Below are positions 1,153-51,386 of a stretch of DNA of 64,000 bases, piece after piece. Position 1 is the stretch's first letter. The number at the start of each line of letters is the position of its first letter. A program made the position numbers and the translations under genes. This stretch comes from Planctomycetota bacterium (lineage in GTDB: Bacteria > Planctomycetota > UBA1135 > UBA2386), in contig JBKAGP010000001.1 of the NCBI GenBank assembly GCA_046290465.1, positions 4,928,001 through 4,992,000 on the forward strand. The letters run 5' to 3'. The notes under the pieces are model-generated. The model saw only the letters and a list, made by a program, of their open reading frames with translations. It searched no databases and had not been told where the DNA came from.

Positions 1153-3069
1153 ATGATTCTGTCCCCTCGCAGCGTCACCCTGTTCGCGCTGCTGTGCGCG
1201 CCCGTCGTGGCGCAGCAGCGCATCGAGCATTCGACCGACGTCTATCCCGGCGGCGACACCTACCCGGACTGGATCGTCTCGCGGGTGGTGGACGACCTGA
1301 CCGGCGCGCCGATCGCCGGCGCCGACGTCTACCTCGTCAAGGAGGCCGAGACGCCGATCGCCGGCGAGTTCTGGTACACGCGCAAGGTGCAGACCGACCG
1401 CGACGGCTGGCTGCGCGCGCCGGTCGGCGACATCGACGGCGAGTGGCACATGCAGGTGCTGCGGCATCCGCGCTACGGCGTCGCGGCGCGGCACGGCCGG
1501 GGTGATGCGATCTGGCGGGTCGGGCGGCCGTTCGACGTGCCGGTGCGCATCGTCGACTGGCGTGGCGCGCCGGTCGCGGGCGCCCGCATCGGGTTCTGCG
1601 GCGGCTGCGGCCACACGCCCGACCTCGCCAACGCGACCACCGCGGCCGACGGGGTCGCGGTGTTGCGGCAGATCGACCCGCACAGCGACATCGGCGACGT
1701 CTACGTGCAGCACGCCGGCCTCGGCCTCGGCTACGACAGCGTGCGATGGAACCCCGGCGAGGGCCCGGAGGTGGTGCGGTGCCGCTGGGCGCCGGCGATG
1801 ACCGGCACGGTCGTCGACCACCTCGGCCAGCCGATCGGCGGCGCGTTCGTCGCGGCGCTGGACGTGCATCGCGGGCCGTGGGCGCGCACCGCCGCGGACG
1901 GCACGTTCACGTTGCTCGGGGGGCCGCCGGAGCTCGGGCCGAGCCACGTGCGGTTCGCCAACGGCCGACAGGTGTGGTTCGACGAGGCGACGCGGTTCCC
2001 GGTGACGCTGCGCGTGCCCGACCCGAACGGCGGCGAGCCGACCCAGGGCGTGATGGTGCAGCCGGACGGTGCTGCGTCCGCGCCGGCGACGCGCAAGCTG
2101 CGCCTCCGGCTGACCGGCGACGATTCGCTGCTCGCCACCGCCGTCTGGCCGGGCGCACCGAAGCGGCGGTCGAGCGACGACGAGGTGCTGGAGGTGCCGG
2201 CGACCGGCCCGTTCGTGATCTCGGTGTACGCCACCGAAGGGGCGCGCGGGCGACCGTTCCGGCGCGACCACTTCTTCGCCGACGCGTCGCAGCTGCCGCC
2301 GGAGCCGGTGGAGCTGGCCTGGTTCGCGCCGCTCGAAGTGGTCGGTCGGGTCGTCGATGCGCGCGGCCTGCCGGTCGCGTCGCGGGTGTTCGTGCGCGAG
2401 AACTGGAGCGTCAGCGAACTGCGGGAGGCCGAGCCGGGCCATGCCCAGCCCGGGTTCCGGATCGCGACGCACGTGAGCGGTCGCACGCTGCTCGAGGTCG
2501 TGCCGGCCGACCGCGCGCTGCGGCCGCGGCTGATGTGGATCGTGCTGCCCGAGCGCGGCACCGCGCCGCGCCTCGACCTCGGCGACGTCGTGGTGCGCGA
2601 ACGTGCCCAGCTGCGCGTGCTCGCGGCCGACGGCCGGGCGCTCGCCGGTCGCGAGGTATCGTGGGCCCGCGCCGGTTGCCAGGAGGTCGCGCACATGCGG
2701 GCGTTCGCCCTCGACGAGGACGGCGGCTGGCTCGGCCCGGACCTGCTGGCCGGCGATGCGCTGGTGGTGCGCGCGTCGGACGACGCGGTGCCGTTCCGCA
2801 CGGTGCTCGCAGGCGTTGGGCCGTGGACGATCACCGCGCCGGACGGGCGGCTCGAACTCGACGTCGTCGACGACCAGGGCGCGCCGTGCAAGGTGACCTG
2901 CGTCGTCGGCGACCACGACCGGCTGGTGCGGCCGGGCAAGCCGCTGCTCGGCCTGCCGCGCGGTCGTTCGACGCTCTACCTCAGCGCCGAGGGGTTTCGG
3001 ACCGCGATCGTGGACGCGGTGGTCGGCGACGCGACCGTGCGGGTGCGCGTCGCGCTGCAGAAGCGCTGA
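1153..3069 (+). CDS. Secreted protein with repeated carboxypeptidase-regulatory-like (transthyretin-like) beta domains
   Basis: Signal peptide (…APVVAQQ). Repeated 'G(R/T)VVD..G.P(I/V)AGA' motifs. Contains a CGGCGH motif. Confidence 0.7.
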   Translation: MILSPRSVTLFALLCAPVVAQQRIEHSTDVYPGGDTYPDWIVSRVVDDLTGAPIAGADVYLVKEAETPIAGEFWYTRKVQTDRDGWLRAPVGDIDGEWHMQVLRHPRYGVAARHGRGDAIWRVGRPFDVPVRIVDWRGAPVAGARIGFCGGCGHTPDLANATTAADGVAVLRQIDPHSDIGDVYVQHAGLGLGYDSVRWNPGEGPEVVRCRWAPAMTGTVVDHLGQPIGGAFVAALDVHRGPWARTAADGTFTLLGGPPELGPSHVRFANGRQVWFDEATRFPVTLRVPDPNGGEPTQGVMVQPDGAASAPATRKLRLRLTGDDSLLATAVWPGAPKRRSSDDEVLEVPATGPFVISVYATEGARGRPFRRDHFFADASQLPPEPVELAWFAPLEVVGRVVDARGLPVASRVFVRENWSVSELREAEPGHAQPGFRIATHVSGRTLLEVVPADRALRPRLMWIVLPERGTAPRLDLGDVVVRERAQLRVLAADGRALAGREVSWARAGCQEVAHMRAFALDEDGGWLGPDLLAGDALVVRASDDAVPFRTVLAGVGPWTITAPDGRLELDVVDDQGAPCKVTCVVGDHDRLVRPGKPLLGLPRGRSTLYLSAEGFRTAIVDAVVGDATVRVRVALQKR

Positions 3070-6824
<3,755 letters not shown>

Positions 6825-41854: not shown

Positions 41855-42928
41855 ATGAAGATGCTCGCCGCGCTGGTCGCCCTCTCGTCCGCCCTGGTGC
41901 CCGCTGCGGCGCAGGCCCCGCAGCTGACGTCGGTCGATCGCTACGCCGACGGATCCTGCGGGGGCGTGCTCGTCGACGCCGCCGCCAGCACCGCGTTCTG
42001 CATCGAGGTCACCCGGCACCGCGCGGAGCTGTGGCTCGACGCGCGGCACGAAGGGGCCGACGGGGCGCGGCGGGTCGCGCCCGGCAGCGACGAGGAGCAG
42101 GCGTTCTTGCGGCGCCTGCAGCAGTGGGGCAAGGCCGCGTTCGACGACGAGCTGCGCGCCCGCATCGAAGCGGCCGACGACGTGCACCATCGCGGCCAGG
42201 GCTGGTCGTTCGCGTCGTTCGACCGCTACAAGGAGGCGGCGGTGCTCAACCGCCTCGCGCTCTATCGCCGCATCCACGCGGCGACGATCACCGACGTGAT
42301 CCGGGGGCGCGGCACGGTGCGGTTGTCGCTCAAGGTGCGTGACGGGCTGGGTGCTGCGCGGTTGGTGACGTTCCGTCGCCTGGAGCAGACCACGCTGCGC
42401 ATGCACTTCGGGGACGCGCAGCAGCCGGTCGCCTACGACTCGGTCGACGAACGGTTCGTGCTGCAGGCGATGCGGGCCTACACCGAGAAGAACATCCCGG
42501 CGCGCGGGCTCGAGTTGCTGTGGCAGGGGGCCAAGCTGTGGCCGATGGGGGCCTCGCGCGACGCGATGGCGGTGTTCGCGGTGCTGAAGGAGTACTGCTG
42601 GCAGAGCTCGCCGCGGCTGGCCAACGCGTTCTACGTCAAGGACGGCGGCTCGACGATCTACGCGCTCGTCGACATGCGCAGCCGCGCCTACGAGGTCAAG
42701 TTCGACAAGGCGATCGGATCGACGACGATCGGTCGGATGTACGAACGTCAGGGCAAGGACGAGTGGCAGCTGGTGGCGTTGGGCAGCGATCGCGAGGCCG
42801 AACTGCTGGCGGGCTTCCGCTCGCTGCTCGCGCGCATCGGCGAGCGCGACCGGCCGATGCTGGCCGGCTGGCTCGAGCGCTACGCGAAGCTGCAGGCCGA
42901 GGCCAAGATCAAGGGGAAGCGGAGCTGA
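41855..42928 (+). CDS. Hypothetical secreted protein with three internal repeats
   Basis: Signal peptide …PAAAQ. VAPGSDEE / VAYDSVDE / VALGSDRE repeats. Confidence 0.72.
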   Translation: MKMLAALVALSSALVPAAAQAPQLTSVDRYADGSCGGVLVDAAASTAFCIEVTRHRAELWLDARHEGADGARRVAPGSDEEQAFLRRLQQWGKAAFDDELRARIEAADDVHHRGQGWSFASFDRYKEAAVLNRLALYRRIHAATITDVIRGRGTVRLSLKVRDGLGAARLVTFRRLEQTTLRMHFGDAQQPVAYDSVDERFVLQAMRAYTEKNIPARGLELLWQGAKLWPMGASRDAMAVFAVLKEYCWQSSPRLANAFYVKDGGSTIYALVDMRSRAYEVKFDKAIGSTTIGRMYERQGKDEWQLVALGSDREAELLAGFRSLLARIGERDRPMLAGWLERYAKLQAEAKIKGKRS

Positions 42929-44111
42929 TCCGTTGTAGCGCGTCGGCGACGTCGCTGCGCCGGCGGCGCGCATCGCGGTCGACGTGCAGCACGAACTCGA
43001 CGTTGCGCGGCTGCGGCGACGGTCGTGTCGGGCTGGTCCGGTAGCGCTTGTAGCTGCGCTGGAACGTGCGCACGGCGCCGTGCTCGCCGGCGATCGCGAC
43101 CAGCCGTTCGAGCGGCACCATGCCGTCGGTGCTGTAGCTGATCAGCAGGTGGCGGGCCGGCATCGTCGCGACCGCCTGCGCAAACGCGTCGGCCGCCAGG
43201 CGGCGGTCGTTGAACGCGCTGCGGCGCTGCTTCCAGTCGGGTCGGATCGCCGCCTTGAAGCCGCGTTCGGTCGGCGGCGGCAGCTCGGGGCGATCCCACA
43301 GCACCAACGAGTTGAGCACGTGGTAGTTGCTCGCGTAGGGGTGCTGGTTGTAGGGCGGGTCGAGGTAGGCGACGTCGGCCGGCGCGTCGAGCACGTCGCC
43401 GACCGTCGCCGCGTCGACGTCGAGCACGCGGTGCCGACGGCCGTTGTCGAGGAACTGCAGCGGTTGCAGTTCGAGGTCGGCCAGGATCCGGTGCAGCGCG
43501 GTGCCGTTGGCGCCGCCCCAGCCGGCGTGGAAGCCCTTGAACACGCCGCTGGTGTTGGCGAGCCAGCACGCCTGGTAGAGCAGCGGGGTCAGCAGGCACG
43601 CTGCCGCCGGGCCGTCGCAGCTGCCGTCCTCGGTCCACCGCTGGATCTGCGCGCGGATCGCGTCGATGCGGCGGCCGGTCGCGCGCCGGTAGAACATGCG
43701 TTCGCGCGCGGGGTCGGGCGCGTCGTCGTCGGCGGGGCACAGCGTGCGCGTGACCCAGTCGTCGATGCCGTCGAGCGCCGCCAGCGTTGCCAGCGCCTGC
43801 CGGTAGCCGCCGAGGCGCGGCAGCGGCGGCGGCTCCGGGCACGCGATCGCCGCCGTGTTGACGACCCGCGCGTACGGTTCCCAGTCGTTGCTGACGACCG
43901 CGAAGCCGCGCTGCTTGGCGAACCGCGACACCACCCCGCTGCCGGCGAACGCGTCGACGAACGTCGCGCGAGTCGGCGCGACGCCGGTCGCATCGAGCGC
44001 CGCGCCGATCAGGTCGAGCAGGTTCCGCTTGTTGCCGAGGTACGGCAACAGCTGGTGGAACACGAACTCGTCGGTCGAGCGCGCGGCGTGCTGTCCGTGG
44101 CGGTAGCGCAA
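42909..44111 (-). CDS. DNA adenine methyltransferase (D12/M.FokI-like), orphan
   Basis: YLGNK, motif I DAFAGSGVVS, NTSGVFKGFH, motif IV YLDPPYN, ISYS. Confidence 0.9.
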   Translation of the reverse strand: MRYRHGQHAARSTDEFVFHQLLPYLGNKRNLLDLIGAALDATGVAPTRATFVDAFAGSGVVSRFAKQRGFAVVSNDWEPYARVVNTAAIACPEPPPLPRLGGYRQALATLAALDGIDDWVTRTLCPADDDAPDPARERMFYRRATGRRIDAIRAQIQRWTEDGSCDGPAAACLLTPLLYQACWLANTSGVFKGFHAGWGGANGTALHRILADLELQPLQFLDNGRRHRVLDVDAATVGDVLDAPADVAYLDPPYNQHPYASNYHVLNSLVLWDRPELPPPTERGFKAAIRPDWKQRRSAFNDRRLAADAFAQAVATMPARHLLISYSTDGMVPLERLVAIAGEHGAVRTFQRSYKRYRTSPTRPSPQPRNVEFVLHVDRDARRRRSDVADALQRISSASP

Positions 44112-44121
44112 GGAGGCGCGG

Positions 44122-44661
44122 CTACTGCGGCCAGTTCAGGCCGTCCGGGAGCTCCGGCCGTTCGACCTGCCACAGGCCGTCGGCGACCAGCACCAGGCTG
44201 CCGTGTTCGTTCTTGGTCATCTTGCCGCGCACCTTCATCAGGTCGAGCAGCCGCGTGTCGGGCAGGCCGGCGGTCTCGACTGGCGTGCCGTCGGGGCCGC
44301 GGAACTCGACCAGCAGTTCGTGCTCACGATGCGCCTCGGCCGTGTCGCAGCAGTAGTCCCACGGCGTCTTGCAGCCCTCGGCGTGCACCTCGCCGCAGTA
44401 CTTCAGCTCCGTGTCCATCAGCTTGACGATGGCGAAGCCCTTGGTGATGTCCTGGATGCGTCCCTGCACGACCAGCGTCGCGTCGCCGGGGCCCTTGTCC
44501 TTGGCTTCGAGCACGGTGATCGCAGCGCCGGGGTCGGCCGCCAGCGCGAACGCGGCGCCTGCGTCGGCTGTGGGGGTCGGTTGCGGCTCGGTCGGCGCGT
44601 CGCCACCGCACGCGGCCAGCAGGGACAGGACGGAAAGGAACAGGAATCGCTTCGGGATCAT
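44122..44661 (-). CDS. Lipoprotein with C-x8-CxTPWDYCC motif, last gene of exporter operon
   Basis: Lipobox LAAC, YCGEVHAEGCKTPWDYCCD, beta-rich OB-like pattern. Confidence 0.85.
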   Translation of the reverse strand: MIPKRFLFLSVLSLLAACGGDAPTEPQPTPTADAGAAFALAADPGAAITVLEAKDKGPGDATLVVQGRIQDITKGFAIVKLMDTELKYCGEVHAEGCKTPWDYCCDTAEAHREHELLVEFRGPDGTPVETAGLPDTRLLDLMKVRGKMTKNEHGSLVLVADGLWQVERPELPDGLNWPQ

Positions 44662-45809
44662 GTGCGGCCTCCGATGGCCTCTACCAGGGGGATGCGAACG
44701 GCCCGGACGGCTGGCACGATGCCGCCGAGCAGGCCGGATGCCAAGGCCGCGCCCAATCCGGCGGCGCGGCTGTAGATGTCTGCCTCGAGCAGCAGCGCTC
44801 CCATCGGGTAGCGCAGCGAGACGGCGCCGATGCCGAGCGCGACCAGCGTGCCGATGGCACCGCCGAGGAACGCGACCAGCAGCGACTCCTGCACCAGGCC
44901 GATCGCGACCCGCGCCGGCGAGTAGCCGAGCGCACGCAGCGTCGCTAGTTCGCGCGTTCGTGCGAGCACGGCGGCGAACATGGTGTTGGCGCACGCGAAC
45001 GCACCGGCGACCACGGCCATGATCGCCATCCAGCGCGCCAGCGCCGCGATCGGAGTCAGGCTGCTGGCGAGCTCGCGCATCAGCACCGGTTCGGGCACGG
45101 CGTCGACCTCGAGGTCGACGCGGCGCGCGGCGAACAGGCGCACGCCCTTCTCGAGTTCGCGGGCGCGGTCGCGGTCGGCCAGCTTGAGCACGACGCACGA
45201 CACGTCCTCGCGTTTGGTCGCGAGCATGATGTCGGCCAGCCGGCCCCAGATCTCGGCCTCGTAGACGGTGCCGGGCGCGGCGAAGTGGCCGACGATGGTG
45301 AACGGCTGGCGCTCGACCGGGAACGTGCGGCCGATCGCGACGTCGTCGGCGGTCAGGCCCATGCGCGCCGCGGCCAGCGCGCCGACCATGATCTCGTTGG
45401 GGCCGCGCGGCTCGCGGCCGGCGACGACGGTGACCTGGTCGTGCACCAGGTAGGCGGCTTCGGTGACGCCGCGCAGCAGCCCGACCTGGTTGCCGTTGCG
45501 GGTAGCGATGTGCAGTTCGACCGACGCGGCGCGGCGGCCGTCGACCTCGAGCACGCCCGGTGCCGAGGCGGCGGCGACCTCGGCGTGGCCACGGCCGACG
45601 ACCGAGCGGACCAGGTCGACCTCGGCGGACGAGCCGAGCAGGTAGACGACGTCGTGCCGTTCGTTGCCGATCGCGGCCTGGTGCATGCCGTCGGCGAACG
45701 CGCTCATCGCGACGACCAGCAGCGTCGTCGCCGCGATGCCGCCGACGGTCACGACGGTGCGCACGCGTCGACGCAGCAGGTTGCGCAGCAGGTATCCGAG
45801 CGGCAGCAT
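44658..45809 (-). CDS. ABC transporter permease (MacB/FtsX family)
   Basis: LRNLLRRRVRT, NTMFAAVLARTRELATLRALG. Confidence 0.93.
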   Translation of the reverse strand: MLPLGYLLRNLLRRRVRTVVTVGGIAATTLLVVAMSAFADGMHQAAIGNERHDVVYLLGSSAEVDLVRSVVGRGHAEVAAASAPGVLEVDGRRAASVELHIATRNGNQVGLLRGVTEAAYLVHDQVTVVAGREPRGPNEIMVGALAAARMGLTADDVAIGRTFPVERQPFTIVGHFAAPGTVYEAEIWGRLADIMLATKREDVSCVVLKLADRDRARELEKGVRLFAARRVDLEVDAVPEPVLMRELASSLTPIAALARWMAIMAVVAGAFACANTMFAAVLARTRELATLRALGYSPARVAIGLVQESLLVAFLGGAIGTLVALGIGAVSLRYPMGALLLEADIYSRAAGLGAALASGLLGGIVPAVRAVRIPLVEAIGGRT

Positions 45810-46951
45810 CAGTCGGCCTTCACGCTGAGGGACAGGGGCCGGCGGGCGACGGCGAATGCCGGCGGGATCGACGCGACGATGCCGACGACCAGGGCGGCCA
45901 GCAGCGACTGCGCCACCATGCGCCCGCTCGGAGCGAGGTCGATGCCGTGGCCTTCGACGCCGAGCGTGATCGGCCAGATGGTCAGCAGCAGCCAGACGAT
46001 GCCGGTGCCGAGCACGCCGCCGACCAGGCCGAGGCCGATGCCTTCGCCGGCGATCAGCGCCATCAGCATGCGCTTCTGCATGCCGACGGTCTCGAGTACG
46101 CCCATCTCGCCGATGCGCGACTCCGCGCTGATGAACACCGTGTTGGCGACGACCAGCGCGACGACCAGCACGCCGAGGTAGCCGAGCCAGCGCGCGAAGT
46201 CGACGACCTCGGTGATCTCGGCGATCGCCGCGGCGACGAACGCCTGCATGCCCTTGGTGTCGGTGCGGGCCTCGTCGGTGCGGAAGTGCTCGTCGATCCG
46301 GGCAGCGATCTCCTCCGGGTCGGCGTCGGGGGCGACCTTGACCAGGAACTGCGTCGCCGCGCCCTGGCGCTTGCGGGCCAGGCTCAGCTGGTCCAACGGG
46401 ATGAACGCGAGGTTGCCGACCGCGGCGGTATCGCTGCGCACGATGCCGCTGACGTACACGTCGACCTCGCCGAGCTGCACGCGTTCGCCGACCCGGATCT
46501 GGCGGCGCTCGGCCAGCCGTTCGCCGACCAGGGCGCCGTCGCTGCGACCCTTCCAGTCGGCGATGCTGCCTGCGATCTCCTCGAGGTCGTAGAGCGCTTC
46601 GAGCTGGTCGTGGGGCACGCCGTGCAGCGTCACCAGGTCGAGGTTCGACCGGCACGAGTTGATGAACACCAACGTCGTCAGCACGTCCTGCACGCCGTCG
46701 ATCTTGCGGATGTCGCGCTCGTAGCGGACCGGCAGCTCGCTGGTCAACGGGCAGAAGCGGCTGTCCTGGAACACCACCAGCACCGGCCGCGAAGTGCGCT
46801 CGGCGAGGTCCTGCACGCCGCCGTCGACGGTGCGCACGAACGCGAACAGCATCATCGCCAAGGTGCCGCCGAGCACGGTCAGCAGGCTGCGCATGCGCGC
46901 GCGGAACGCGGTGCGCACCACGTAGGGGAAGAACGCGAGCAGTTCACGCAT
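45809..46951 (-). CDS. ABC transporter permease (MacB/FtsX family)
   Basis: [30 protein letters not shown]. Periplasmic RFCP…NSC Cys pair. Confidence 0.93.
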
Positions 46952-47630
46952 GGGCGGCCTCCGTGACGATCTTGCCCTTGTCGAGGTGCACGATGCGGTC
47001 GGCCTTCCTGGCCGCCAGCGGGTCGTGCGTCACCATCACCAGCGTCTTGCCGAACTCGTCGACCAGCCGCCGCAGCAGCGTCATCGTCGCGGTCGCGGAC
47101 TCGCGATCGAGGTTGCCGGTCGGCTCGTCGGCGAACATCACCACCGGGTCGGTCACGATGGCGCGCGCGATCGCGACGCGCTGCTGCTGGCCGCCCGACA
47201 TCTGACGCGGCAGGTGGTGGGCGCGCTCGGTCAGGCCGACCGCGGCGAGCGCGGTCGCGATGCGCTTGCTGCGCTCGGCCTTGCTCATCTTGAGCAGCAG
47301 CAGCGGCACTTCGACGTTCTCGAACGCGGTCAGCACCGGGATCAGGTTGTACTGCTGGAACACGTAGCCGACGGCGCGCGTGCGCCAGCGCGCGAGCTGG
47401 CTCGGCGCCATCTCGTGCACCCGTTCACCGTCGACGACGACGGTGCCGTCGGTCGGTCGATCGATGCCGGCCAGCATGTGCAGCAGCGTGGTCTTGCCGC
47501 TGCCGGACGGTCCCATCAGGCAGACGAACTCGCCCCGCTCGACGTCGAAGTCGAGGTCGGCGACCGGGGTGACCGACTCGGCGCCGGACGAGAACGTCTT
47601 GGTGACGTTGCGCAGTTCGATCAGGCTCAT
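46944..47630 (-). CDS. ABC transporter ATP-binding protein (MacB/LolD-like)
   Basis: [31 protein letters not shown]. Confidence 0.96.
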
Positions 47631-49111
47631 CGTCGGGCCTCCTGGACGGCCTCGCCGTCGGTCACGTCGTCGAGCACGACGCGTTGGGTGGGGGACAGCG
47701 GGCCGCGCACGATCGCGTCGTCGCCGCGTTCGCCGGCGGCCTGCACGGCGACCGCGCGCACGCGCTTCGTCGCGGGGTCGTAGACGAACACCTGGCCGCC
47801 GCGGACCGCCGCCTTCGGCACGCGGAATGCCGCGATCGTGCGACCGGCGGCCTGCTCGGTGCCGCCCTCGGGCGCCAAGAAGCGGGCCCGGCAGAGGGTC
47901 TCGGGGCGCAGCAGCGCCGGCGGGTCCTCGAGGCCGATCTTGACCTGCAGCGTGTTCTTCAACATGTCGGTCTCGTGTTGCAGCCGCTGCACGACGCCGT
48001 GCACGACCGTGTCGCCGGTCGCCTCCGAGGTGACCTCGACACGTTGGCCCGCGTGGATGCCGGCGAGCGAGTCGAGCGGCACGTCGATGCGGGCACGCAG
48101 CTTCTTCGGGTCGTAGATCGCGACGACGCCGGTTGCGCCGTGGCCGACCATGTCGCCCGGCTCGGCCTCGAGGCGCATGACGATGCCCCCGACCGGAGAA
48201 CGCACCGTGGCCCAGTCGAGTTCGCGCTCGGCGATCGTGTGCTCGGTGCGCGCCTTGGCGAGCATCGCCTCGGCCTTCTGCACGTCGGCCGTGGCCTGCG
48301 CGACGCCACCGCGAAGGTCGACCGGGTCGGCGGCGAGCTGCTTGCACAGCTCGAGCGCGTCGCGCTGCGTAGAGAGCTCGGTGCGCAGGCCGTCGAGCTG
48401 GCGTTGCTTGGACTGCACCCGCGCGGTGGCGGCGTCGGCGTCGGCGCGCGCGCGCTCGAGGGCGACCGGGTAGCTCTGGCCGGCCTCGGCCAGCCGGAGC
48501 TGTGCCTTGACCGTGGCGGCGGCGCTGGCCGCTTCGGCGCTGGCCTGCCGCAGCTCCTCCTCGACGGTCGCTTCGCGAGTGGCGACGGCGGCGATGCGGT
48601 TGTGGGCCTCGACGACGCGCAGCTCGTTGTCGGCGTTCTGTCGCAAGCGTTCCTGTGCGAGCCGCAGGTCGGCGTTGGCGCGGGCCAGCCCGGCCTCGGC
48701 CTCGCGCACCGTCGCGACGGCGCGGTCGCGGGCGGCCTGCAGGTCGGCGCTCGCCAGCTGCGCGATGACGGTCTCGTCGGCGATGATCTCGGCTCCCTCG
48801 AGCACCGCGAGCGTCTCGATGTGGCCGCTGACGAGCGGCCGCACGATGTACGGGAACGGATCGGCCTCGACCCAGCCGACGGCTTCGGTCGTCGCCCGCG
48901 AGGACGCGACCTGCACCCCGTCGGTGACCGCGGTGATGCCGGCCATGCGCACGGCGCGCGGCGGCAGCAGCAGCGGCACGACGAACGTCGCGGCGACGGC
49001 GAGCGCCAGCACGAGGACGCCGCCGACGAACAGCCGCGGGCCGAGCGGTCGCTTCGGCACGGCGGCCTGCGACTCGTCGATGCGCAGGGCAGACAGGTCG
49101 ACGTTGCTCAT
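47627..49111 (-). CDS. Periplasmic adaptor (membrane fusion protein) with long coiled coil
   Basis: N-terminal TM, GWVEADP, lipoyl half-motifs, TVRSPVGG, DMLKNTLQVKI. Confidence 0.9.
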   Translation of the reverse strand: MSNVDLSALRIDESQAAVPKRPLGPRLFVGGVLVLALAVAATFVVPLLLPPRAVRMAGITAVTDGVQVASSRATTEAVGWVEADPFPYIVRPLVSGHIETLAVLEGAEIIADETVIAQLASADLQAARDRAVATVREAEAGLARANADLRLAQERLRQNADNELRVVEAHNRIAAVATREATVEEELRQASAEAASAAATVKAQLRLAEAGQSYPVALERARADADAATARVQSKQRQLDGLRTELSTQRDALELCKQLAADPVDLRGGVAQATADVQKAEAMLAKARTEHTIAERELDWATVRSPVGGIVMRLEAEPGDMVGHGATGVVAIYDPKKLRARIDVPLDSLAGIHAGQRVEVTSEATGDTVVHGVVQRLQHETDMLKNTLQVKIGLEDPPALLRPETLCRARFLAPEGGTEQAAGRTIAAFRVPKAAVRGGQVFVYDPATKRVRAVAVQAAGERGDDAIVRGPLSPTQRVVLDDVTDGEAVQEARR

Positions 49112-50316
49112 CGGGCTTGCTCCTCGGTCTCGGGCACGCGCGGCCAGCCGTGTGCGGTGGCGAAGCGCACCGTTGCGACGGCGTGGGCGGACGAAGCGCG
49201 GCGGTGCTCGGCGATCGCCTGCAGGTATTCGGACGCGGCCCGCGCGAACGGCTGGAACGCATCTGGCTCGACCTCGAGCGCGGCGCGCGCCGCGTCGAAC
49301 GCGGTCTGCCTGGCGGTCAGCGCGCTGCGCGCGGCGTCCCGGTTGGCGGCGGCCGTCTGCAGCTCGTCGCGCGCGACGCTCGCCTCGCGGCGCGCCTCGA
49401 GCAGCGCGTCCTCGACGTCGTGGCGGGCGGCTTCGCGGCGGTCGCGCGCAGCGGCCGCCAGGCCGTGCATCGCGAACGGGATGTTGAGCATGCCCATGGC
49501 GCGCAGCGGGTCGCCGCGCAGCGAGACGTTGGGGCCGATCTGGAACGACGGATACTGGTCGGTGACCGCCTTGCGGAAGTCGCGATCGGCGACCTCGAAG
49601 CGGGCCACGGCGAGCGCCAGGTCGGGGCGTGCCAGCAGCTCGCGATCGTCGCCGCGGACCTCCACGCTGGGCTCGTCGGTCTGCACGTCGAGTGCCGCGG
49701 TGGCGGGCAGGCCGAGCAGGTGCCGCAGTCGCGCGAGCTGGTCGCGGCCAAGGCGCGCCAGCTCCAGCCGTTCGCTGCGGGCGCGGGCCGTGGCGGCGCG
49801 CAGCATGGCGGCCGCGACCGGACTCGCCAGGCCGCTGCGCTCGAACGCGGCGACGTCGAGGTCCAGCTCGGGTGTCGGCAGCGTGGTCGCGACGTGGTGC
49901 AGGGCGAACGCCTCGGCGAGCTCGCCGAGCGCGCGCCACCGGGCGACGGCGAGCTGCGTGGCGGCTTCGACGGCGCGCGCTTCGGCGGCTTCGATCGCGG
50001 CGCCGCGCGGGCCGAACCCGAGCAGCGCGATCGGGTCGAGCATCACGCCGACGGCCTCGTTGCGGCCGCGCCATTCCCCCGTCGCGGGCAGCGGCACGGT
50101 GCGCGCGGCGCCGGCCGCGCGAGCGCGCGCCTCGGCCGCGCGCAGCTCGGGGTGCTGGCGCAGGGTCCGCAGCACGGCGGCGTCGAACGTGAAGCTGCCG
50201 CCTTCGCGCGCCGCGACCTCGGCGGCGATGGTGGCGACGTCGGCGGCGTCGCTCTGGTAGGCGACGCAGCCGAGTGGCAGCAGGAAAACCAGGATGGAGA
50301 ACGGGCGTGCCGACAT
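49108..50316 (-). CDS. TolC-family outer membrane efflux lipoprotein
   Basis: LPLGC lipobox, HPELRAA, RPDLALA, QYPSFQIGP. Confidence 0.85.
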   Translation of the reverse strand: MSARPFSILVFLLPLGCVAYQSDAADVATIAAEVAAREGGSFTFDAAVLRTLRQHPELRAAEARARAAGAARTVPLPATGEWRGRNEAVGVMLDPIALLGFGPRGAAIEAAEARAVEAATQLAVARWRALGELAEAFALHHVATTLPTPELDLDVAAFERSGLASPVAAAMLRAATARARSERLELARLGRDQLARLRHLLGLPATAALDVQTDEPSVEVRGDDRELLARPDLALAVARFEVADRDFRKAVTDQYPSFQIGPNVSLRGDPLRAMGMLNIPFAMHGLAAAARDRREAARHDVEDALLEARREASVARDELQTAAANRDAARSALTARQTAFDAARAALEVEPDAFQPFARAASEYLQAIAEHRRASSAHAVATVRFATAHGWPRVPETEEQAR

Positions 50317-50341
50317 GGCGGTGCGGGATCGGGCGAACGGA

Positions 50342-50395
50342 GCGGTCCGTCGACGGTCCGGCACGCGAGCGCGTCCGGTCGTCGACTCGGATCGC
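50342..50395 (-). promoter_or_regulatory. Stem-loop between the leader ORF and tolC (candidate attenuator)
   Basis: Nested pairing gtcgacg/cgtcgac, ccgg/ccgg and acgcg/cgcgt, extended by gcggtccg/cggatcgc. Confidence 0.55.
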
Positions 50396-50401
50396 GGCTC
50401 G

Positions 50402-50932
50402 CTAGATCAGCAGCACCTGGGTGGCGCGCAGCGCCGTCGTGCGGTCGATCCGTGGGGGGCCACGATCGAAGCAGAACGGACGTGCCGCCTCGATCACGCG
50501 CACGACCGGCTGCGGCAGCGGGGCGATCCAGCAGATCACGGCCGGCATCGGCGACAGCTTGGCGACGTCGACGTTGGGCGCCATCTCGACGTCGAACGCG
50601 ATCGTCACGCAGCAGCCACCGTCACAGTCCGAGCCAGCATCGCCGTCGGAGCCAGCATCGCCGTCCGAGCCAGCATCGCCGTCATCGTCGCGGCCGTCAT
50701 CGTCACCGGCAGCGATGCCGCCATCGTGCGTGCCCGACGGCTCGCAGCAGCCGCAGCAGTCGTCGTCGGCGGGCTGCGCTTCGGACGCGCAGCAGGCGTG
50801 CGCCGTCACCTCGCTGCACGCCCCGATGCACGTGCGCACCGTGACCCTGCTCGTCAGCGCGACGAGCATCAGCGCGATCATCGTGACCCACAGGATGGGT
50901 CGAGCGGCGCTGGTTGTGGTCGGGTTGGCCAT
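50402..50932 (-). CDS. Secreted Cys/Asp-rich leader protein with C-terminal RGPP motif (DUF2946/HYC_CC_PP-like architecture)
   Basis: Hydrophobic N-terminus, CxxxC, CC, CCGCC, acidic linker, CxxxCC, then …FDRGPPRIDRTTALRATQVLLI. Confidence 0.75.
   Translation of the reverse strand: MANPTTTSAARPILWVTMIALMLVALTSRVTVRTCIGACSEVTAHACCASEAQPADDDCCGCCEPSGTHDGGIAAGDDDGRDDDGDAGSDGDAGSDGDAGSDCDGGCCVTIAFDVEMAPNVDVAKLSPMPAVICWIAPLPQPVVRVIEAARPFCFDRGPPRIDRTTALRATQVLLI
50627..50680 (-). repeat. 18-bp coding tandem repeat x3 (GDAGSD)
   Basis: gtc(c/g)gagccagcatcgcc x3. Confidence 0.9.
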
Positions 50933-50948
50933 GCGGTTGCGGTCGCGC

Positions 50949-50977
50949 AGGGTGACTGGATCTCCATCGGCTGTCAA
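50949..50977 (-). promoter_or_regulatory. Candidate sigma70 promoter TTGACA-N17-CACCCT for the leader/exporter operon
   Basis: Perfect -35 with a 17-bp spacer, 16 nt upstream of the leader ATG. The -10 is weak. Confidence 0.55.
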
Positions 50978-51000
50978 GCCCGGGGAATCCACCCGGTAGC

Positions 51001-51285
51001 TCATACCTTCTGTTTGCGGGCCCACTGGGCGTGCCGCTGCAGCTCGGGCGAGGCCCGCAGCGCCGCCAGCGACGCGAACCTGCGGGCCAGCGTCATCTCG
51101 TCGTAGAAGCGGTGCACCGCCCGGTGGCAGAGGCGGCACAGGTGCACCCCCTGCTGCAGGTGATCGCGATCGTAGGTGCGGCGGAAGAACGTGCGCCGGT
51201 GCACCTTCTTGGGGATCAGGTGGTGGAACGTCAACTCCCGCTCCGCGGAGCACAGTTCGCAGCGATCGGGGGCGTGGCGGGGCAT
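51001..51285 (-). CDS. Small HNH-like Zn-finger protein (YisB-like)
   Basis: CELC…TFHHLIP…LCRLCHRAVH. Confidence 0.85.
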   Translation of the reverse strand: MPRHAPDRCELCSAERELTFHHLIPKKVHRRTFFRRTYDRDHLQQGVHLCRLCHRAVHRFYDEMTLARRFASLAALRASPELQRHAQWARKQKV

Positions 51286-51386
51286 TTTGGGAGCCTCCTA
51301 GGGTACCCGGGGCCATGTCACCAAGCTGTCATCCCGCCGACCGGGTCCTGCCGACGCGGCCGCCGGCGGCGTAGCATCGCCGCCTC

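Follow-up and report, generated by a model that had tools for sequence, protein, structure and literature searches.

A Cys-rich leader peptide with a conserved tail and a predicted RNA helix at its stop codon ahead of a planctomycete export operon

How might a small cysteine-rich exported protein, encoded immediately ahead of an efflux operon, govern the genes behind it, and at which of its codons would a ribosome have to be held? The question is raised by a stretch of 64,000 nucleotides (nt) from a Planctomycetota bacterium (assembly GCA_046290465.1, contig JBKAGP010000001.1, positions 4,928,001 to 4,992,000), here called the window, in which a Cys-rich open reading frame (ORF), the leader, precedes a tolC gene and a MacB-type export operon. 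A preliminary description had proposed that the leader senses metal and arrests ribosomes at an Arg-Gly-Pro-Pro (RGPP) motif. Comparison across related sequences indicates that RGPP is not the conserved unit and that a 20-residue tail ending at the stop codon is. RNA complementarity between the end of the leader and the tolC start region is sequence-specific and centred on the same stop codon. The reading we favour, which we hold at slightly less than even probability, is that the leader is a cis-acting metal sensor and that the export operon is translated mainly while a ribosome occupies the leader stop codon.

The leader gene

The leader and its upstream signals comprise the following elements of the window.

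50972..50977, minus strand: -35 hexamer TTGACA, likely promoter, its position kept in 15 of 16 homologous loci
50949-50954, minus strand: weak -10 element CACCCT, at a 17-nt spacer from TTGACA
50402..50932, minus strand: leader ORF, 176 amino acids (aa), member of a Planctomycetota family without a name
50852..50905, minus strand: predicted hydrophobic helix at residues 10-27, either a signal anchor or a signal peptide
50597..50842, minus strand: putative Cys-rich sensor region, residues 31-112
about 50624-50707, minus strand: Asp-rich repeat linker inside the sensor region
50453..50464, minus strand: RGPP, residues 157-160; family consensus (T/R)GPP
50402..50464, minus strand: fixed-length tail (T/R)GPPRxDxRTxLxATTVL(L/R)(I/L)-stop, a candidate for an element that fills the tunnel and arrests or pauses the ribosome

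As described previously, the ORF contains 13 Cys (residues 35, 39, 47, 48, 59, 60, 62, 63, 103, 107, 108, 134 and 154) and runs for 16 more residues after RGPP, terminating in VLLI-stop. It sits within a 304-aa frame of the ORF list (50402-51316) whose third-position GC is 0.52 in the 5' extension, against 0.88 in the leader and 0.93 in tolC; the extension is therefore probably non-coding in that frame, in line with the earlier view that the longer ORF is spurious. The proposed TTGACA promoter held up in part. TTGAC(A/G), once CTGACA, lies 41-83 nt upstream of the leader start in all of the 16 homologous loci except L009, and the TTGACA hexamer is rare in the genome (157 sites in 6.6 Mb), but the -10 element at this locus is weak and a consensus scan of the region called no full promoter.

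The export signal was judged from the hydrophobic stretch and a structure model, with no signal-peptide predictor behind it; the model predicts the helix with a local confidence score (pLDDT) of about 90 at residues 11-20. For the sensor region the model is of low confidence (predicted template-modelling score, pTM, 0.30), and two short predicted strands, 31-35 with C35 and 108-112 with C108, flank the CC and CCGCC clusters and the Asp-rich linker. A helix at residues 164-175 of the tail is likewise predicted at low confidence. Three of the Cys, C35, C60 and C108, are present in at least 90% of 120 aligned family members, and an 18-nt repeat unit is absent from one related contig. A genome-wide search for R[AG]PP together with Cys returned 68 stop-to-stop frames, among which the window ORF is the sole convincing leader.

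A tail conserved up to the stop codon

A profile built from 16 leaders recovered 169 representatives at E <= 0.001, and the family figures below rest on 150 of these 169 matches listed. The diproline (PP) lies exactly 16 residues from the end in 130 of the 140 representatives of at least 110 aa. In these 130 members GPP is preceded by Thr in 89 cases and by Arg in 30. Conservation extends through a block from -23 to -1 (G-19 in 116, R-16 in 118, D-14 in 104, T-11 in 85, L-9 in 98, T-5 in 113 and L-3 in all 130), whereas positions -24 to -55 hold about 1 bit each and are little conserved. The peptide is thus conserved to the stop at fixed length, as expected of a termination-arrest peptide, although the profile has partly selected for this. 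Among 39 loci with DNA, variation at synonymous sites from -20 to -4 is mostly close to that in tolC, falling at -10 and -8, and the final three leader codons are constrained. Because the residues after the PP mostly vary freely at synonymous sites, they appear to be kept as peptide. Judged from these alignments, selection is at the peptide level after the PP and at the RNA level at the very end of the leader.

Leaders were also collected by position. A search seeded with the lipoprotein of the downstream operon yielded 80 loci, nearly all from Planctomycetota, in which the operon was mapped, and a detector requiring a hydrophobic stretch, six Cys and a CC, blind to the PP and the C-terminus, was applied to them. 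It called a leader at 38 of the 53 operon heads with sufficient upstream DNA and at 12 of 679 other genes, 10 of the latter being the operon's own lipoprotein; three of the 38 are doubtful (L088, L114 and L115). A PP falls within the last 26 residues of 33 of these 38 leaders, and 25 end in an aliphatic triplet; the corresponding numbers for a background of 817 ordinary genes are 96 and 18. R[AG]PP occurs in 5 of the 38. A further set of 18 weak profile matches was held out, 3 of which were dropped as not being leaders of this type. The remaining 15 include 11 with PP and 2 with R[AG]PP, and all 15 have an aliphatic-type end under a looser pattern. The four without PP in the last 26 residues include the third paralog of the window genome. 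The earlier expectation that upstream ORFs would conserve a signal, a CC and R(A/G)PP is supported for the first two features and fails for the last.

These counts bear directly on the proposal that RGPP is a conserved arrest motif of the ApdA/ApdP type. No other residue can take the place of the Arg in arrest by ApcA, ApdA or ApdP (Fujiwara et al. 2025, PMC12992588), and in the leader family Thr dominates at that position. RGPP is nonetheless retained in the closest relatives of the window leader, and ORFs for small secreted RAPP/RGPP proteins occur in excess ahead of TolC and periplasmic adaptor genes (PMC12992588).

Two further observations concern termination and elongation. TAG is the stop codon of 18 of 37 family leaders, 11 of 38 position-found leaders and 159 of 817 background genes; release-factor specificity was considered on this account, and we make no claim for it. 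The genome carries three genes resembling that of elongation factor P (EF-P) at G000:C1:4457540, 2780307 and 4766775, two of which exceed the TIGR00038 cut-off; the EF-P history of Planctomycetota is reported to be unusual.

A predicted RNA helix across the leader stop codon

Downstream of the tail, the transcript is predicted to fold into a long-range helix with three parts.

50397..50417, minus strand: 5' arm, comprising the last four codons, the stop and 5 nt; duplex -22.1 kcal/mol; from the minimum free energy fold
50342..50395, minus strand: inner GC hairpin, folding at -30.7 kcal/mol, which brings the two arms together
50317..50338, minus strand: 3' arm, the 22 nt immediately 5' of the tolC ATG; initiation region

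In the predicted fold, GGUGCUGCUGAUCUAGCGAGC (50417-50397) pairs with the 22 nt preceding the tolC AUG, and the wider leader-tolC region folds with z = -3.3. The hairpin noted previously is real, but it is only the inner part of this longer helix and alone stops 25 nt short of the tolC ATG, leaving the start uncovered. No Shine-Dalgarno sequence lies upstream of tolC, and across 42 loci the target gene has one in 3.

We estimated the energy needed to open the tolC start with ribosomes placed at different codons, using a footprint of +15 nt. At the window locus the predicted cost is 20.3 kcal/mol with the leader free, 18.7 with a ribosome at the PP and 8.8 with one at the stop. A ribosome at the PP shifts the mean from 14.95 to only 14.32 across 13 loci. 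Over 42 loci the mean is 15.4 for a ribosome at the PP and 9.5 for one at the stop, with a drop of more than 1 kcal/mol in 37. Removing RNA lowers the opening cost by itself, and pairing specificity was hence tested with swaps and shuffles, in a window of -24 to +12 around the leader stop of the 42 loci (the start-codon rule looks wrong for L152 and L182, both of which were kept). Cognate duplexes average -17.3 kcal/mol, against -12.7 when partners are swapped and -12.9 when dinucleotides are shuffled; the cognate pairs are stronger than swapped partners in 37 of 42 loci and than shuffles in 36, with p <= 0.05 in 19. The window duplex was equalled by none of 100 shuffles, and 101 ordinary gene pairs gave a pairing excess of 0.03. 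In a sliding scan the excess is greatest (-3.5) from -12 to +14 nt relative to the stop and is near zero around the PP codons (-1.1 to +0.2).

Arm sequences differ widely among loci; between L155 and L158, both members of the same pair have changed. In one paralog of the window genome (C1:2323463-2323978) a 10-bp helix links the stop region to the next start, and in the paralog without PP (C1:3009338-3009835) the nucleotides just past the stop are predicted to pair with an AGGAGG that precedes an in-frame TTG.

The pairing arm begins about 25 nt past the footprint of a ribosome at the PP. Because the covering RNA straddles the stop and lies past its reach, a ribosome at GPP would be unable to open the tolC start; on this geometry it would have to sit at or beside the stop to do so. 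The earlier model, in which metal-controlled RAPP-type arrest at RGPP would itself unfold the hairpin and release tolC, thus conflicts both with the dispensable Arg and with opening energies that hardly change at the PP, and we regard it as the least likely of the explanations considered here.

The same spacer invites comparison with transcriptional attenuation as in CruR, in which the position of the ribosome would govern Rho loading on C-rich intergenic RNA. The 3' half of the spacer is C-rich, a terminator consensus scan of the region found no intrinsic terminator, and the genome has a rho-like gene (441 bits, under the 509 cut-off). The spacer is, however, only 85 nt long and nearly all paired in the predicted fold, and the complementarity aims specifically at the start region. 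We consider this explanation very improbable as the primary control; Rho attenuation could also act downstream of translational closure.

Leaders stand at the head of metal-linked export operons

Searching 61 genomes for tolC gave 21 matches, one of them the window locus, and immediately upstream of 17 lies a Cys-rich ORF with an aliphatic triplet at its end. In all 37 family-member loci examined, the gene directly next to the leader encodes an outer-membrane efflux protein (OEP). The targets are the MacB-type operon in 18 and resistance-nodulation-division (RND) or CzcC-like genes in 19; the tolC-first search supplied 12 of the 18 MacB-type loci, and the contig is cut short in some cases. Leaders of MacB-type loci are Cys-rich (median 12 Cys and 3 His; more Cys than His in 17 of 18), whereas those of RND or CzcC-type loci are His-rich (median 7 Cys and 10 His; more Cys than His in 3 of 19); these counts include kin, which are not independent.

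Fifteen of the 53 operon heads received no detector call. Five of them have a leader by eye (L101, L104, L105, L111 and L070, the last with an in-frame stop), two have no leader by eye either (L059 and L098), and eight carry metal genes in the leader's place. The metal genes, found among 100 hand-chosen neighbours, are of the ArsR/SmtB type in L075 and L085 and of the MerR family in L118; L049 has a gene for a CzcA-like pump, and L060, L067, L068 and L062, the last assigned by size and place only, each have one for a P1B ATPase. The L060 ATPase passes a cadmium-family cut-off. Being close kin, the four ATPase-headed loci are treated as a single event. This comparison supports the view that the leader is exchangeable with ArsR and MerR heads ahead of the same operon. 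Because Cd/Zn-type ATPases, ArsR/SmtB and MerR-type heads replace it, the context suggests that the metals sensed are soft divalent ions; copper is possible too. The earlier proposal of a metal-sensing leader is accordingly strengthened by the fixed position, the Cys/His clusters and the metal-linked targets, and loses its support from RGPP.

Replacement by regulators also bears on a simpler explanation, plain translational coupling without sensing, in which any terminating ribosome opens the start, the exported product serves to buffer metal or redox state, and the hydrophobic end is a degradation tag. The helix requires merely a terminating ribosome, and Roy et al. propose nonpolar C-termini as a degradation signal for CruR (PMC9426467). 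Thirteen Cys and an acidic linker would suit a metal sink. A degron of this kind requires a nonpolar C-terminus, to which the Arg at -2 of 45 of 130 members and the polar or charged last residue of 18 of 130 are poorly suited. Coupling alone also leaves unexplained the fixed spacings between Cys, PP and stop and the presence of ArsR or MerR at the same place, and we judge it improbable.

Several loci deserve mention in their own right. The paralog at G000:C1:2323463-2323978 (plus strand; L123:964-1479) is His-rich, has a TGPP tail and precedes TolC, adaptor and CzcA-like genes. The third leader of the genome, at G000:C1:3009338-3009835 (minus strand; L205), lacks a terminal PP, ends in LRRSVVLLI and precedes CzcC-like and RND genes. 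At L171 (G208:C2) a Cys-rich leader lies ahead of a divergent RND pump, which matches the CzcA-like protein of the window genome at 34%, and a P-type ATPase; this is possibly a Cu/Ag system. The L070 leader (about 2700-3160, plus strand) has an in-frame TGA immediately following a Cys codon, at a site that is often CC in relatives, which may reflect a pseudogene, a sequence error or selenocysteine. A second leader type occurs in Phycisphaerae-like loci (L084, L086, L091, L094, L099, L101, L102 and L109). It ends (I/V)F(H/R)PPR-x-stop, with the PP 2-4 residues from the end as in CutF, and precedes the same operon minus tolC. In L059 a tRNA-like sequence, judged by eye, occupies the leader's usual place (about 3140-3215, plus strand).

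The export operon

The genes following the leader were confirmed by profile matches as an outer-membrane efflux protein, an adaptor, an ATP-binding cassette (ABC) ATPase and two permeases, as the preliminary description had them, with a lipoprotein gene at the end.

49108..50316, minus strand: TolC-like outer-membrane efflux lipoprotein (OEP); PF02321, E 7e-07
47627..49111, minus strand: periplasmic adaptor (MFP); TIGR01730 at 105.9 bits, above cut-off; PF16576
46944..47630, minus strand: ABC ATPase of LolD/MacB type; library profile matches
45809..46951, minus strand: MacB/FtsX-type permease 1; MacB_PCD domain with C67 and C100
44658..45809, minus strand: MacB/FtsX-type permease 2; Pfam match
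44122..44661, minus strand: lipoprotein without a named family; predicted oligonucleotide/oligosaccharide-binding (OB) fold with insert C-x7-10-CKTPWDYCC; candidate periplasmic metal chaperone

Stop and start codons of consecutive genes overlap from tolC onward. The ABC ATPase, FtsX/MacB_PCD permeases, MFP and OEP together make up the composition of a MacB-type exporter, resembling MacAB-TolC and LolCDE; the system differs from these in its two split permeases with invariant periplasmic Cys and in its Cys-loop OB-fold lipoprotein. The permease 1 Cys are near-invariant (C67 in 62 of 63, C100 in 63 of 63).

The lipoprotein family (window 44122-44661) nearly always accompanies the MacB-type permeases and combines a predicted OB fold with a four-Cys loop. 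It matched no Pfam family. Its structure model (pLDDT 88.7) matches OB folds, the best with Z 10.4, a root-mean-square deviation of 2.9 and 100 aligned residues; YgiW scores Z 8.1, level with nucleic-acid-binding OB folds, and CusF is absent among the 50 matches listed, although a relationship to it is still conceivable. Leads from the structure atlas score below 0.9, and Foldseek returned generic OB folds. C89 is present in 73 of 74 and C105 in 74 of 74 members, and neither residue was part of the search seed; the CKTPWDYC core did serve as seed, which makes the invariance of the core partly circular. We infer that the lipoprotein may be a periplasmic metal chaperone. The Cys of permease 1 and of the lipoprotein could instead form disulphides. 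A literature search combining MacB, heavy metal and Planctomycetes found no description of the operon, most subscription papers lying outside its reach.

Two neighbouring genes flank the system. A small HNH-like gene at 51001-51285 (minus strand; NF058586 HlpB at 51 bits, under the cut-off of 130) stops 23 nt ahead of the -35 element; it occurs in L003 and is missing from most relatives. Immediately past the operon, at 42909-44111 (minus strand), lies a D12-class adenine methyltransferase gene, as also in L043.

Relation to known leader peptides

The general class to which this leader would belong, metal-sensing leaders ahead of export genes, is already published. The closest likeness is to CutF of Rhodobacter capsulatus, which precedes cutO, and to CutF-like proteins (10.1101/2022.11.11.516240; 10.1101/2025.02.05.636593). 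With these the window leader shares an export signal, a Cys/His site, a C-terminal diproline and a predicted RNA structure over the downstream start, and an OEP gene lies close downstream, OEP genes being the commonest neighbours of CutF-like genes in those accounts. The published filter of Ozturk et al. for CutF-like proteins (fewer than 150 aa, PP within the last 15) excludes the window leader, which has 176 aa and its PP at -18/-17. The PPP of CutF lies 2 residues from its end, whereas 16 conserved residues follow the PP here. The window arm pairs around the stop codon, the target mostly lacks a Shine-Dalgarno sequence, and no hidden Markov model match links the two.

CruR of Bordetella pertussis, a DUF2946 protein (PMC9426467), is likewise the first gene of its operon, with fixed Cys-proline spacing and a nonpolar C-terminus, and the window leader also has an N-terminal export signal or transmembrane segment as a promoter-proximal first gene. 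CruR has CXXC and, about 45 residues on, RAPP three residues from its C-terminus; the window leader has CC clusters, 50-52 residues to the PP and 16 after it. The leader Arg is not conserved, export rather than uptake would be controlled, and the output looks translational where that of CruR is Rho termination. Membership of DUF2946 itself, which the preliminary description proposed to check, found no support: the leader matched no Pfam family at E <= 1, 49 leaders matched none at E <= 0.05, and the PF11162 matches in the genome lie elsewhere and below cut-off. HYC_CC_PP, likewise proposed for checking, fared no better, with no NF047658 match in the genome at E <= 1 and none in 130 + 39 leaders. 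No leader exceeded the CopL cut-off (NF033807), CopL_fam reaching 19.1 bits against a cut-off of 40 in the distant leader L086. A search of the ESM atlas returned only unnamed clusters, with DUF8199 at rank 12 as a lead and not a match.

Like the RAPP/RGPP upstream ORFs (uORFs) of the ApdA/ApdP class, the window leader carries RGPP near the C-terminus of a small exported protein. A published table of 530 RAPP uORFs before TolC genes (PMC12992588) includes two members of the leader family; in one of them the RAPP given in the table is upstream of the conserved TGPP. The tail and helix are not treated in the consulted portion of that paper. Stop-codon arrest has precedents in NSP-stop/NAP-stop uORFs and in CliM. 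As in the leader, conserved residues run to the stop, and CliM forms helices in the tunnel where the leader has its predicted helix 164-175. The examples considered monitor Sec or YidC and none a metal, and they were compared by features. A link to CzcCBA is provided by the sister leaders that head CzcCBA-like RND pumps.

Hold at the stop codon or release from GPP

In the favoured reading, the N-terminal helix would take the nascent chain to the translocon, and the Cys clusters would bind a thiophilic metal (Zn, Cd, Pb, Hg or Cu) outside the cytoplasm. The 20-residue tail, still within the exit tunnel as the stop codon occupies the A site, would slow termination. Bound metal would hinder export of the chain and lower the pull on it, so that the ribosome would stay, the helix would remain open, and tolC, MFP, ABC ATPase, permeases and lipoprotein would be made. 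The logic would be that of CutF (metal, stall, ON), with the stall shifted from the diproline to the stop.

The spacing of the Cys also fits a different order of events. Anchor Cys and PP are 50-52 residues apart in 91 of 119 members, across poorly conserved sequence, and CruR, whose stall is relieved by Cu (PMC9426467), has a similar ruler. GPP might accordingly hold the ribosome without metal, keeping tolC closed. A Cys clasp folding on metal, at the moment when its last strand emerges from the translocon some 50 residues away from the peptidyl-transferase centre, would then pull the chain free, and the ribosome would reach the stop and open the start, with the tail perhaps adding a pause at the stop; sensing would be of the CruR type and the output reversed. 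Closure of the predicted strands 31-35 and 108-112 would have to await the exit of residue 112, RGPP is a strong arrest motif avoided in Planctomycetota proteomes (PMC12992588), and the helix lies past a ribosome at the PP. Against such a gate, Thr replaces Arg in most members, the 30 residues before GPP, which would fill the tunnel, are little conserved, leaders without terminal PP keep the tail (the third paralog also the helix), and two EF-P genes of the genome exceed the cut-off. Because the Cys-to-stop distance is as fixed as that to the PP, the ruler does not point to the PP alone. We regard release from GPP as a possible but less likely alternative. A hold at the stop codon is preferred because the Arg is dispensable, the sequence before GPP is unconserved and that after it conserved, and the PP can be lost with tail and helix kept.

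A number of results weigh against the hold at the stop codon. The near-fixed PP and the Cys-to-PP spacing fit a stall at the PP equally well, and because the window lineage carries RGPP, the strongest arrest tetrapeptide known, ribosomes may stop there first. The profile search favours the tail from which the profile was built, and the leader loci are kin rather than independent, so p-values overstate. Among 23 more distant Planctomycetota leaders the pairing excess is weak, being present in 14 (p = 0.13). Of the 15 held-out leaders, 12 pair more strongly than the shuffle mean, with p <= 0.05 in 6. Codon-shuffle, synonymous-recoding and swap controls confined to the last 11 codons of 13 loci, leaving the post-stop nucleotides of the arm unaltered, were positive in 7, 8 and 6 of the 13. 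RNAalifold, given a plain alignment of the spacers of 11 close loci, missed the long helix, and RNA run X1 covered 236 nt of tolC with nothing useful over the leader.

Discussion

We tentatively extend the favoured reading beyond the window, at a probability clearly below even, to Planctomycetota-wide metal-gated termination-arrest peptides. In each, the tail would hold the ribosome at the stop and the helix across the stop would melt; Cys-rich leaders would run a MacB-type system with a Cys-loop OB-fold chaperone, His-rich ones would run CzcCBA-like pumps, and the leader would be interchangeable with ArsR and MerR. A literature search, with most subscription papers outside its reach, found no description of the leader family, the 20-residue tail, a helix across a metal-leader stop or the MacB-type operon.

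Screens that take RAPP/RGPP or a diproline as the stall site may be misled by such leaders, in which the regulatory RNA spans the stop, the Arg is dispensable and a longer tail is conserved. Whether ribosomes stall at GPP or at the stop bears on how an external metal signal reaches the ribosome. The three paralogous leaders of one genome, differing in Cys and His content, offer a comparison of metal specificity. For the Planctomycetota, the leaders tie a widespread and uncharacterised MacB-type operon to heavy-metal handling.

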